Assembly (NCBI RefSeq): GCF_003334765.1
Contig: NZ_QOWT01000028.1
Source of the DNA: Escherichia coli
GTDB lineage: Bacteria > Pseudomonadota > Gammaproteobacteria > Enterobacterales > Enterobacteriaceae
Length of the DNA stretch: 52,994 nucleotides
Direction: 5' to 3' (one strand)
Shown: positions 8,196 through 44,052 of the stretch, piece by piece
How positions within the stretch are numbered: the first letter of the stretch is position 1
How the letters are laid out: the number at the start of each line of letters is the position of its first letter
Notes under the pieces: generated by a model
Seen by the model: the letters and a program-made list of their open reading frames with translations, nothing else
Told to the model about the DNA's origin: nothing
Databases searched by the model: none
Program-made: the position numbers and the translations under genes

Positions 8196-8891
8196 ATGTT
8201 AGAAGATCTCAAACGCCAGGTATTAGAAGCCAACCTGGCGCTGCCAAAACACAACCTGGTCACGCTCACATGGGGCAACGTCAGCGCCGTTGATCGCGAG
8301 CGCGGCGTCTTTGTGATCAAACCTTCCGGCGTCGATTACAGCGTCATGACCGCTGACGATATGGTCGTGGTTAGCATCGAAACCGGTGAAGTGGTTGAAG
8401 GTACGAAAAAGCCCTCCTCCGACACGCCAACTCACCGGCTGCTCTATCAGGCATTCCCCTCCATTGGCGGCATTGTGCATACGCACTCGCGCCACGCCAC
8501 CATCTGGGCGCAGGCGGGTCAGTCGATTCCAGCAACCGGCACCACCCACGCCGACTATTTCTACGGCACCATTCCCTGCACCCGCAAAATGACCGACGCA
8601 GAAATCAACGGCGAATATGAGTGGGAAACCGGTAACGTCATCGTAGAAACCTTTGAAAAACAGGGTATCGATGCAGCGCAAATGCCCGGCGTTCTGGTCC
8701 ATTCCCACGGCCCGTTTGCATGGGGCAAAAATGCCGAAGATGCGGTGCATAACGCCATCGTGCTGGAAGAGGTCGCTTATATGGGGATATTCTGCCGTCA
8801 GTTAGCGCCGCAGTTACCGGATATGCAGCAAACGCTGCTGGATAAACACTATCTGCGTAAGCATGGCGCGAAGGCATATTACGGGCAGTAA
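8196..8891 (+). CDS. araD: L-ribulose-5-phosphate 4-epimerase
   Basis: 231-aa protein [32 protein letters not shown]...; class II aldolase/epimerase; start ATG 8196. Confidence 0.95.
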
Positions 8892-8894
8892 TGA

Positions 8895-8910
8895 CTGTAT
8901 AAAACCACAG
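8895..8910 (+). promoter_or_regulatory. LexA (SOS) box of polB
   Basis: CTGTATAAAACCACAG matches the CTGT-N8-ACAG consensus, 56 nt upstream of the polB GTG start. Confidence 0.8.
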
Positions 8911-8924
8911 CCAATCAAACGAAA

Positions 8925-8951
8925 CCAGGCTATACTCAAGCCTGGTTTTTT
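8925..8951 (+). terminator. intrinsic terminator after araBAD
   Basis: Hairpin CCAGGCT-atactca-AGCCTGG followed by TTTTTT. Confidence 0.6.
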
Positions 8952-8965
8952 GATGGATTTTCAGC

Positions 8966-11317
8966 GTGGCGCAGGCAGGTTTTATCTTAACCCGACACTG
9001 GCGGGACACCCCGCAAGGGACAGAAGTCTCCTTCTGGCTGGCGACGGACAACGGGCCGTTGCAGGTTACGCTTGCACCGCAAGAGTCCGTGGCGTTTATT
9101 CCCGCCGATCAGGTTCCCCGCGCTCAGCATATTTTGCAGGGTGAACAAGGCTTTCGCCTGACACCGCTGGCGTTAAAGGATTTTCACCGCCAGCCGGTGT
9201 ATGGCCTTTACTGTCGCGCCCATCGCCAATTGATGAATTACGAAAAGCGCCTGCGTGAAGGTGGCGTTACCGTCTACGAGGCCGATGTGCGCCCGCCAGA
9301 ACGCTATCTGATGGAGCGGTTTATCACCTCACCGGTGTGGGTCGAGGGTGATATGCACAATGGCACTATCGTTAATGCCCGTCTGAAACCGCATCCCGAC
9401 TATCGTCCGCCGCTCAAGTGGGTTTCTATAGATATTGAAACCACCCGCCACGGTGAGCTGTACTGCATCGGCCTGGAAGGCTGCGGGCAGCGCATCGTTT
9501 ATATGCTGGGGCCGGAGAATGGCGACGCCTCCTCGCTTGATTTCGAACTGGAATACGTCGCCAGCCGCCCGCTGCTGCTGGAAAAACTCAACGCCTGGTT
9601 TGCAAACCACGATCCCGATGTGATCATCGGCTGGAACGTGGTGCAGTTCGATCTGCGAATGCTGCAAAAACATGCCGAGCGTTACCGTCTTCCGCTGCGT
9701 CTTGGGCGCGATAATAGCGAGCTGGAGTGGCGCGAGCACGGCTTTAAAAACGGCGTCTTTTTTGCCCAGGCTAAAGGTCGGCTAATTATCGACGGTATCG
9801 AGGCGCTGAAATCCGCGTTCTGGAATTTCTCTTCATTCTCGCTGGAAACTGTCGCTCAGGAGCTATTAGGCGAAGGAAAATCTATCGATAACCCGTGGGA
9901 TCGAATGGACGAAATTGACCGCCGTTTCGCCGAAGATAAACCTGCGCTGGCAACTTATAACCTGAAAGATTGCGAGCTGGTGACGCAGATCTTCCACAAA
10001 ACTGAAATCATGCCATTTTTACTCGAACGAGCAACGGTGAACGGCCTGCCGGTGGATCGGCACGGCGGTTCGGTGGCAGCGTTTGGTCATCTCTATTTTC
10101 CGCGAATGCATCGCGCTGGTTATGTCGCGCCTAATCTCGGCGAAGTGCCGCCGCACGCCAGCCCTGGCGGCTACGTGATGGATTCACGGCCAGGGCTTTA
10201 TGATTCAGTGCTGGTGCTGGACTATAAAAGCCTGTACCCGTCGATCATCCGCACCTTTCTGATTGATCCCGTCGGGCTGGTTGAAGGCATGGCGCAACCT
10301 GATCCAGAGCCCAGTACCGAAGGTTTTCTCGATGCCTGGTTCTCACGGGAGAAACATTGCCTGCCGGAGATTGTGACTAACATCTGGCATGGGCGCGATG
10401 AAGCCAAACGTCAGGGTAATAAGCCGCTTTCGCAGGCGCTGAAGATCATTATGAATGCCTTTTATGGCGTGCTCGGCACCACCGCCTGCCGCTTCTTCGA
10501 TCCGCGCCTGGCATCGTCGATCACCATGCGTGGTCATCAGATCATGCGGCAGACCAAAGCATTGATTGAAGCGCAGGGCTACGACGTTATCTACGGAGAT
10601 ACCGACTCGACTTTTGTCTGGCTAAAAGGTGCACATTCGGAAGAAGAGGCGGCGAAAATCGGTCGTGCACTGGTGCAGCACGTTAACGCCTGGTGGGCGG
10701 AAACGCTGCAAAAACAACGGCTGACCAGCGCATTAGAACTGGAGTATGAAACTCATTTCTGCCGTTTTCTTATGCCAACCATTCGCGGAGCTGATACCGG
10801 CAGTAAAAAGCGCTACGCCGGGCTGATTCAGGAGGGCGACAAGCAGCGGATGGTGTTTAAAGGGCTGGAAACCGTGCGCACCGACTGGACGCCGCTGGCC
10901 CAGCAGTTTCAGCAGGAGCTGTACCTGCGTATCTTCCGCAACGAGCCATATCAGGAGTACGTCCGCCAAACCATCGACAAACTGATGGCGGGTGAACTGG
11001 ATGCGCGGCTGGTTTACCGTAAACGCCTTCGCCGTCCGCTGAGCGAATATCAGCGTAATGTTCCGCCTCATGTACGCGCCGCTCGCCTTGCCGATGAAGA
11101 AAATCAAAAGCGCGGTCGCCCCTTGCAATATCAGAATCGCGGCACCATTAAGTACGTATGGACCACCAACGGCCCGGAGCCGCTGGACTACCAACGTTCA
11201 CCACTGGATTACGAACACTATCTGACCCGCCAGCTACAACCCGTGGCGGAGGGAATACTCCCTTTTATTGAGGATAATTTTGCTACACTTATGACCGGGC
11301 AACTTGGGCTATTTTGA
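8966..11317 (+). CDS. polB: DNA polymerase II (B family)
   Basis: 783-aa ORF beginning at GTG 8966 ([17 protein letters not shown]...); exonuclease and polymerase motifs (YGDTDS). Confidence 0.95.
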
Positions 11318-38582: not shown

Positions 38583-38757
38583 GCCGGATGCGGCGTAAAC
38601 GCCTTATCCAACTCTGCTGGAGAGCAACCGTAGGCCGGATAAGATGCGCCAGCATCGCATCCGGCGATAGCTGTCGGATGCGGCATAAACGCCTTATCCA
38701 ACCCGGCTGGAGAGCAACCGTAAGCCGGATAAGATGCGCCAGCATCGCATCCGGCGA
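38583..38757. repeat. tandem duplication of an 85-bp REP-pair (BIME) unit, period about 90 bp
   Basis: Copy A 38583-38667 and copy B 38673-38757 are near-identical (gccggatgcggcgtaaacgccttatccaac...gccggataagatgcgccagcatcgcatccggcga) with a few substitutions. Confidence 0.8.
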
Positions 38758-38786: not shown

Positions 38787-39182
38787 TTAACGACGCATAC
38801 TCTTTGACAACATCATCTGCCACTTCTGCTCGCGGTTAAGTTCCGTGAGCGGAACGGCAGGAATACGCGGTGTCTTTCTTACGCCGACTAATTTTTCCCG
38901 ACTGTTATTGCGCAGGCGCGCGTAAATTTGCTCATCGATATCGACCACTTTAACCAGTCGCTGACACTGGCATCCCCGCCCTTCCAGCTTATTAGGGATC
39001 ATCTTAACTTCGCAGCTTATTTCTGTGACTTCCGACAGAATATAAGTCAGGGTATTAACCGCCTTGCTGTGTTCAATATCGAAATGAATAGAGATCTCTC
39101 TTGCTATCACCCACCGATTTTCAGCCATCATCCATTCGGCGATTAACAAGTAGAGTGGTTTTTCAACATATCCTTCACACAT
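38787..39182 (-). CDS. caiF: transcriptional activator of the cai/fix operons
   Basis: 131-aa protein MCEGYVEKPLYLLIAEWMMAENRWVIAREISIHFDIEHSKAVNTL...; start ATG 39182 (the track ORF is N-extended). Confidence 0.9.
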   Translation of the reverse strand: MCEGYVEKPLYLLIAEWMMAENRWVIAREISIHFDIEHSKAVNTLTYILSEVTEISCEVKMIPNKLEGRGCQCQRLVKVVDIDEQIYARLRNNSREKLVGVRKTPRIPAVPLTELNREQKWQMMLSKSMRR

Positions 39183-39361
39183 ACGAACTCCAGTTTCACA
39201 AATTAAAAGTCTGGCTATGACTCGTTTTGAAGCAATTAAACAAGGCCATATTAAAATTGTGGATATATCGATAGTATGCAACTTCACCGTCGATAAGTGT
39301 GAGCTAAATCCTGCTTATGTCATCAAAAATATCGATTCCCCAAAAGATTTACTTAATGGGC

Positions 39362-43878: not shown

Positions 43879-44052
43879 CAATGATGACGTAAATCAATGC
43901 AAATCTGCTTACCGACGAATTTCTGGCAAACGGCGGCATTCTGGAGATATGGGCGCTAAAAGTCAACTTAATGGCGGGATTTTTTATATTATTTTGTGGC
44001 TCATGCATGTTTTACATGCATTAAGCGACAAAAAGATCATATAACCTGTTCT

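Follow-up and report, generated by a model that had tools for sequence, protein, structure and literature searches.

The window, a stretch of 52,994 nucleotides from Escherichia coli, contains the ara-polB region of this species, oriented as the reverse complement of K-12. Positions 8846-8986 are base-for-base identical to K-12 MG1655, and K-12 coordinates were obtained as 74746 minus the window coordinate. The spacer between araD and polB comprises 74 nt (8892-8965), and the GTG start of polB at 8966, as initially annotated, matches both the ORF list and the RefSeq annotation of K-12. A search with a 501-nt query recovered the araD-polB spacer in 5401 of 5426 complete E. coli genomes, with the genes annotated as araD and polB. 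Rfam models at gathering thresholds gave no match within the spacer. The genes and elements of the region are listed below.

8196..8891, plus strand: araD CDS, last gene of araBAD; ATG at 8196, stop codon TAA at 8889-8891; from the ORF list, and 696 nt in RefSeq for the identical K-12 sequence
8895..8910, no strand assigned: LexA (SOS) box CTGTATAAAACCACAG, at -48 to -33 from the polB start; from pattern match and conservation
8908..8913, plus strand: weak -35-like hexamer CAGCCA, assigned from the locations of the -10 hexamer and the mapped polB start
8922..8948, plus strand: araBAD intrinsic-terminator hairpin, an inverted repeat with 5' arm AAACCAGGCT (8922-8931), 7-nt loop (8932-8938), and 3' arm AGCCTGGTTT (8939-8948)
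8931..8936, plus strand: polB -10 hexamer TATACT, conserved, ending 7 nt upstream of the mapped start
8943, plus strand: polB transcription start, a T inside the 3' arm of the hairpin (K-12 65803, minus strand); from two independent genome-wide maps
8943..8965, plus strand: polB leader UGGUUUUUUGAUGGAUUUUCAGC, 23 nt from the mapped start to the GTG codon
8946..8951, plus strand: terminator T-run TTTTTT, at +4 to +9 of the polB leader
8966..11317, plus strand: polB CDS, DNA polymerase II, 783 aa, GTG start; from the ORF list, and annotated likewise in RefSeq for identical K-12 DNA

LexA box and terminator hairpin

The first base of the LexA box is the fourth nucleotide past the araD stop, where an SOS box had been placed in the initial annotation. 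The element is a 16-mer of the form CTG-N10-CAG with an A/T-rich center. According to a review, polB belongs to the LexA regulon, and the consensus LexA box is TACTG(TA)5CAGTA (PMC6590174). The pattern CTGT-N8-ACAG occurs twice in the window compared with an expectation of 0.4, and 6 of 100 shuffled sequences reached two occurrences. The second match, CTGTGACTTCCGACAG at 39023-39038, falls within a minus-strand ORF of 166 aa (38787-39287); its center is G/C-rich, and it is probably a chance occurrence. Three base pairs are common to the LexA box of polB and the -35 position, so that the box overlaps the core promoter. The locus thus resembles typical SOS promoters in having a single CTG-N10-CAG box with an A/T-rich center that overlaps the -35 region. 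It differs from them in three respects: the right half-site, CCACAG, is not TACAG-like, the promoter is almost devoid of a -35 hexamer, and the operator begins 4 nt past the stop codon of a strongly transcribed upstream operon.

An intrinsic (Rho-independent) terminator of the araBAD operon was reportedly described by Lee et al. in 1986. The inverted repeat downstream of the LexA box agrees with such a terminator in its G+C-rich 10-bp stem, its 7-nt loop, its U-run, and its beginning 30 nt past the araD stop, but it differs in that its loop and descending arm double as the polB -10 hexamer and transcription start. Five of the 10 pairs are G-C, the folding energy is -14.3 kcal/mol, and the stem runs into TTTTTT. 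The element therefore has the stem-loop and U-run of an intrinsic terminator, and, as expected of one, it lies downstream of a co-directional gene (araD here; counts for other genomes are given below). The terminator hairpin that had been annotated between the LexA box and the polB start, at 8925-8951, corresponds to the G+C core and T-run of the full 8922-8951 element. Both arms carry Dcm sites: CCAGG at 8925-8929, in the promoter spacer, and CCTGG at 8941-8945, spanning the polB start.

The 96-nt stretch around the hairpin has a folding energy of -28.7 kcal/mol (z = -2.9). A simple terminator scan of the window showed no enrichment over shuffled sequences and reported the spacer hairpin on the minus strand only. 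The scan missed the hairpin on the plus strand because three Ts were counted as stem, which left too few in the tail; the shorter stem CCAGGCT/AGCCTGG leaves the tail TTTTTTGA. The Term-seq tables of Adams 2021 (PMC7815308), from LB cultures and glucose cultures grown without arabinose, contain no araD 3' end. The statistical evidence within this single window is modest, and conservation carries the weight.

Promoter and transcription start of polB

In the initial annotation, polB transcripts were thought to have to read through the hairpin, with a coupling of SOS induction to anti-termination, unless the polB start lay downstream of it. For this to hold, transcription would have to begin between the LexA box and position 8922. 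In favor of this, the LexA box does precede the hairpin, and a scan for consensus promoters detected none of textbook type within the spacer. The scan returned no promoter because the polB -35 is too poor: CAGCCA, at -35 to -30 and 17 bp from the -10 hexamer, matches the consensus at three of six positions and is not recognizable as a -35 element.

Mapped transcription starts, obtained by two methods in E. coli and also available for Klebsiella, lie instead within the descending (3') arm of the terminator. In Table S1 of Kim et al. 2012 (PMC3415461), the polB start is placed at K-12 65803 on the minus strand (2 reads), with a 5' UTR of 23 nt; the 51-mer given there ends ...TATACTCAAGCCT / ...GGCTATACTCAAGCCT, and its last base is the polB start. 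Supplementary Data 2 of the SMRT-Cappable-seq study (PMC6131387) reports operon b0060 with a TSS at 65803 and scores it 'same' as RegulonDB, which by this scoring contains a monocistronic polB unit with a TSS at 65803. For Klebsiella pneumoniae, the table of Kim et al. (PMC3415461) gives a polB start with 4 reads that lies one nucleotide further into the same hairpin arm. It is located downstream of CTGTATAAAACCCCAG...AAACCAGGCTATAATCAGGCCTG, with TATAAT in the hairpin loop. The read counts of these starts are low (2 in E. coli and 4 in Klebsiella), and the cultures were grown without SOS induction. The supplementary tables of Cappable-seq 2016 have no entry at K-12 65802-65804.

The hexamer TATACT, a 5/6 match to the -10 consensus, lies about 7 nt before the mapped 5'-triphosphate end at 8943. 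Its first T closes the hairpin stem, and its remaining five bases are within the terminator loop. Relative to the polB start, the LexA box occupies -48 to -33, the 5' arm -21 to -12, the -10 hexamer -12 to -7, the 3' arm -4 to +6, and the T-run +4 to +9, with the GTG codon at +24. The polB start thus lies past the 5' arm and the loop, and the hairpin is therefore absent from polB mRNA; SOS induction consequently requires no anti-termination. We consider it very probable that polB transcription starts within the far arm of the terminator, under repression by LexA through occlusion and with no anti-termination step.

The proposal that polB transcripts start upstream of the hairpin and pass through it encounters further difficulties. 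The interval 8911-8921, the least conserved part of the spacer, contains no -10-like hexamer. An invariant TATA.T occupies the loop, with a constant spacing of 20 nt to the box, and several lineages have lost the hairpin entirely and kept the box and the -10 hexamer. Such an upstream start is therefore very improbable. The anatomy described in the initial annotation is correct, but anti-termination is not supported, and the identity of the loop as the polB -10 element was missed. The annotation was also right to treat the polB start as the deciding variable; the start at 8943 is not downstream of 8951, as it had envisaged, yet the consequence is the same, since polB mRNA is unable to form the hairpin.

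A terminator hairpin between a regulatory site and a start codon is also found in leader attenuators and anti-termination systems. Attenuation entails a start upstream of the hairpin, whereas here transcription from the polB promoter begins at 8943, in the 3' arm, and does not include the 5' arm (8922-8931). The polB locus also differs from these systems in having no leader-encoded terminator and no alternative structure.

Several other features of the promoter and leader may be mentioned. The GGA at 8955-8957 may serve as a weak Shine-Dalgarno-like site for polB. An extended -10 consensus is preferred by sigma-S, and GCTATACTCAA appears to resemble it. This resemblance would fit the RpoS dependence that has been reported for polB (PMC6590174). 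The table of Kim et al. 2012 (PMC3415461) also lists a start with 2 reads inside araD, at window ~8800 (K-12 65946, minus strand), 166 nt upstream of polB. A transcript from this position would include the entire terminator, and the start is probably noise. A role in UTP-sensing reiterative transcription was considered for the U-run of the leader (+4 to +9); this idea was set aside, as the hairpin-less lineages also lack the T-run.

Conservation and genomic context in the Enterobacteriaceae

We compared 80 polB loci, one per species, from the Enterobacteriaceae, anchored on the -10 hexamer; the alignment comprised 79 loci and the window (80 sequences). TATA.T was invariant, with TATAAT in 68 sequences and TATACT in 12. 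The positions CTGTA.A.A....CAG of the LexA box were likewise invariant, and the gap between the box and the -10 hexamer was 20 nt in 77 of the 80 sequences. The GTG start of polB was kept in all aligned relatives; its last G was invariant, and the preceding G and T were at least 90% conserved. Conservation was lowest in the stretch between the LexA box and the hairpin (-32 to -22), in keeping with what a promoter spacer should show. The sole locus with a shifted operator was that of Siccibacter turicensis (L079, 1417-1494), whose LexA box precedes the -10 hexamer by 10 nt rather than 20 nt; its hairpin has the stem CCAGC/GCTGG.

The -10 hexamer is polymorphic in E. coli. The window and K-12 have TATACT; TATAAT is found in E. 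coli O157:H7 Sakai, STEC299, E94, SCU-301, and L002, and in E. albertii (L082-L085, L002, and L004). From this distribution, TATAAT is probably the ancestral form, and the K-12-type C moves the hexamer nearer to a sigma-S-type -10 element.

In the 80 sequences, 84.6% of the hairpin stem cells were paired, compared with 19-64% when the partner columns were slid. Three pairs changed on both sides, and covariation did not exceed that of shuffled controls; the aligned stem thus appears to be simply conserved. Since covariation was too rare, we relied on conserved complementarity and on a test of genomic context. A one-column shift of the stem (L081, L079, L028, and L030) leads to too low a score in the column-based pair count, and the context test was therefore repeated with folding energies for each sequence. 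The stems of Buttiauxella (AAAGTGGTC/GACCACTTT) and Siccibacter (CCAGC/GCTGG) are altered yet complementary, and another plus-strand gene precedes polB in these genera.

The context of polB varies among species. In many of them, araD abuts the LexA box as in E. coli, or only REP-like palindromes intervene; in others, genes are inserted between araD and polB. Adjacency of araD and polB with a shared hairpin is the majority state in the Enterobacteriaceae. The hairpin was intact in 58 of 60 loci in which no separate terminator follows the co-directional gene upstream, compared with 3 of 15 in which araD has its own hairpin and T-run directly past its stop codon. The latter group comprised Salmonella, several Citrobacter, Pseudocitrobacter, Phytobacter, a Kosakonia species, and an uncultured Enterobacteriaceae genome (L014). 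Median folding energies were -14.95 kcal/mol without a separate terminator and -6.4 kcal/mol where araD has one. The association of hairpin and context (Fisher p = 1.4e-9) is not corrected for phylogeny and represents perhaps four to five independent lineages. The LexA box and the -10 hexamer persisted in all loci of both context classes. Because the 3' arm and the T-run depend on context in this way, we conclude that the hairpin serves the upstream unit and that the box and the -10 hexamer serve polB.

There were exceptions to this association. Pluralibacter gergoviae (L068) lacks the hairpin despite an adjacent araD, two Citrobacter loci (L006 and L007) keep it alongside a separate araD terminator, and four loci (L027, L038, L047, and L050) have lost it despite a plus-strand upstream gene. 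In P. gergoviae (~1409-1486), araD is 81 nt from polB and the residual fold is -2.4 kcal/mol; loss of the hairpin predicts strong read-through from araBAD into polB in this species.

The inverted repeat could alternatively belong to polB itself, as a cruciform, a part of the promoter architecture, or a leader structure, with its likeness to a terminator being incidental. In loci that have araD and polB apart, the repeat is always found next to polB and not next to araD, and AAACCAGG of the 5' arm is conserved even in the absence of an intact 3' arm. Decay of the 3' arm and T-run is seen in Salmonella enterica subsp. diarizonae and arizonae (L013 and L018) and in L023, L034, L045, L046, L038, L047, and L050. 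Loci with a decayed 3' arm keep AAACCAGG(C/T)TATAAT and the LexA box, and in them a separate, strong hairpin terminator follows araD. The 5' arm thus shows more conservation than the hairpin needs. Its position in the promoter spacer, at -21 to -12, accounts for this conservation, however, and the 5' arm is absent from polB mRNA. Moreover, decay of the 3' arm and T-run is specific to loci with a separate terminator for the upstream gene; both persist, in some cases with compensatory changes, where a co-directional gene runs into polB. We thus regard an assignment of the repeat to polB rather than to araBAD as scarcely credible, and retain its assignment as the terminator of the upstream unit.

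In Klebsiella, Raoultella, and Enterobacter lineages (L030, L031, L035, L039, L042, L043, L051, L052, L054, L059, L061, L063, L071, and L072), REP-like and other G+C-rich palindromic repeats of 80-280 nt were inserted downstream of the araD stop and ahead of the LexA box, and the hairpin was unaffected in these loci. In E. coli SCU-301 (L085, NZ_CP051751.1 4099914-4102967), an island of three hypothetical genes on the minus strand separates araD from polB. A new terminator-like hairpin directly follows araD in this strain, and its LexA box is of the Citrobacter/Salmonella type (CTGTACAAAATATCAG). SCU-301 is similar to the window again only from the polB-proximal hairpin onward; the island and the box region were therefore exchanged as one.

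Proposed mechanism and cross-talk between araBAD and polB

The mapped start and the conservation data suggest the following model. Transcripts from the araBAD promoter would carry the entire inverted repeat (8922-8948) and the U-run, and most would end there, probably at about 8949-8953. The polB promoter is embedded in the same repeat, with its -10 hexamer in the loop and its start at 8943 in the descending arm. The polB mRNA therefore begins UGGUUUUUUGAUGG..., lacks the ascending arm, and is unable to fold the terminator. LexA bound at 8895-8910 would cover the weak -35 element and the region upstream of it and block the polymerase; repression of polB by LexA is thus likely to act by occlusion. 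Cleavage of LexA, stimulated by RecA, would free the promoter, and the weak -35 element, weak Shine-Dalgarno site, and GTG start may together hold the output of Pol II modest. We have high confidence that one stretch of spacer DNA serves both the end of the araBAD unit and the start of the polB unit as a compact module.

The individual elements are not new. The promoter and LexA operator of polB (dinA) of E. coli K-12 were reportedly described by Iwasaki et al. in 1990 and by Chen et al. at about the same time (~1990), and the locus analyzed here is the same one, identical in sequence over 8846-8986. The arrangement is thus already known, as the documented polB (dinA) promoter/operator and araBAD terminator, and constitutes no new kind of element. 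A full-text literature search on the polB promoter, LexA, the araBAD terminator, and AraC returned only strain genotypes or unrelated mentions. What is new appears to be a small comparative illustration, namely that the 3' arm degenerates once araD carries a separate terminator. The locus provides a clean, textbook-style case in which the loop of a terminator is the -10 element of the next gene, and the lineages form a natural experiment that separates the hairpin, which belongs to the upstream operon, from the LexA box and -10 hexamer, which belong to polB. The overlap is also relevant to strain engineering, as deletions in ara with an endpoint at or close to the araD stop, or with loss of the hairpin, will change the polB operator or promoter too.

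Read-through from araBAD into polB is plausible. Stringer et al. in 2014 reportedly observed that transcription unexpectedly continues past the araD and araE terminators, with higher expression of polB and ygeA on arabinose. If so, the idea of arabinose-dependent read-through in the initial annotation was correct and already published. It could further be argued that the terminator is leaky by design, such that growth on arabinose raises Pol II through read-through and possibly by knocking LexA off, and that the overlap was selected for cross-talk rather than for compactness. In addition to the increase in polB expression reported by Stringer et al., the prevalence of adjacent araD and polB with a shared hairpin would agree with this proposal, as would the fact that each polymerase from araBAD crosses the LexA box and the whole polB promoter before terminating. 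Against it, at least four lineages have split araD from polB or given araD its own terminator, with the polB promoter and box retained; coupling of araBAD to polB is therefore dispensable. In addition, a hairpin of -14 to -16 kcal/mol followed by six Us looks like a normal, efficient terminator. Selection for leakiness is accordingly unlikely, and we favor the compact module. A broader form of the idea is that transcription from araBAD over the LexA box and polB promoter could displace LexA, occlude the promoter, and leak into polB together, as a two-way cross-talk selected in most Enterobacteriaceae. We consider this quite doubtful; if true, it would amount to a damage-independent, carbon-source-dependent setting of the Pol II level.

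Other features of the window lie outside the araD-polB spacer. The 3' end of polB contains a start of rapA (hepA) with 21 reads (K-12 63588, window ~11158) and a region of Rho termination (K-12 63552, window ~11194). The main rapA-rluA start is in the polB-rapA spacer, at window ~11390 (K-12 63356). Rfam matches above the gathering score were found at 43879-43931 (minus strand), 15083-15162 (plus strand), and 38633-38703 (minus strand), and correspond to ES003 sRNA and to the nucleoid-associated RNA naRNA4, present twice.
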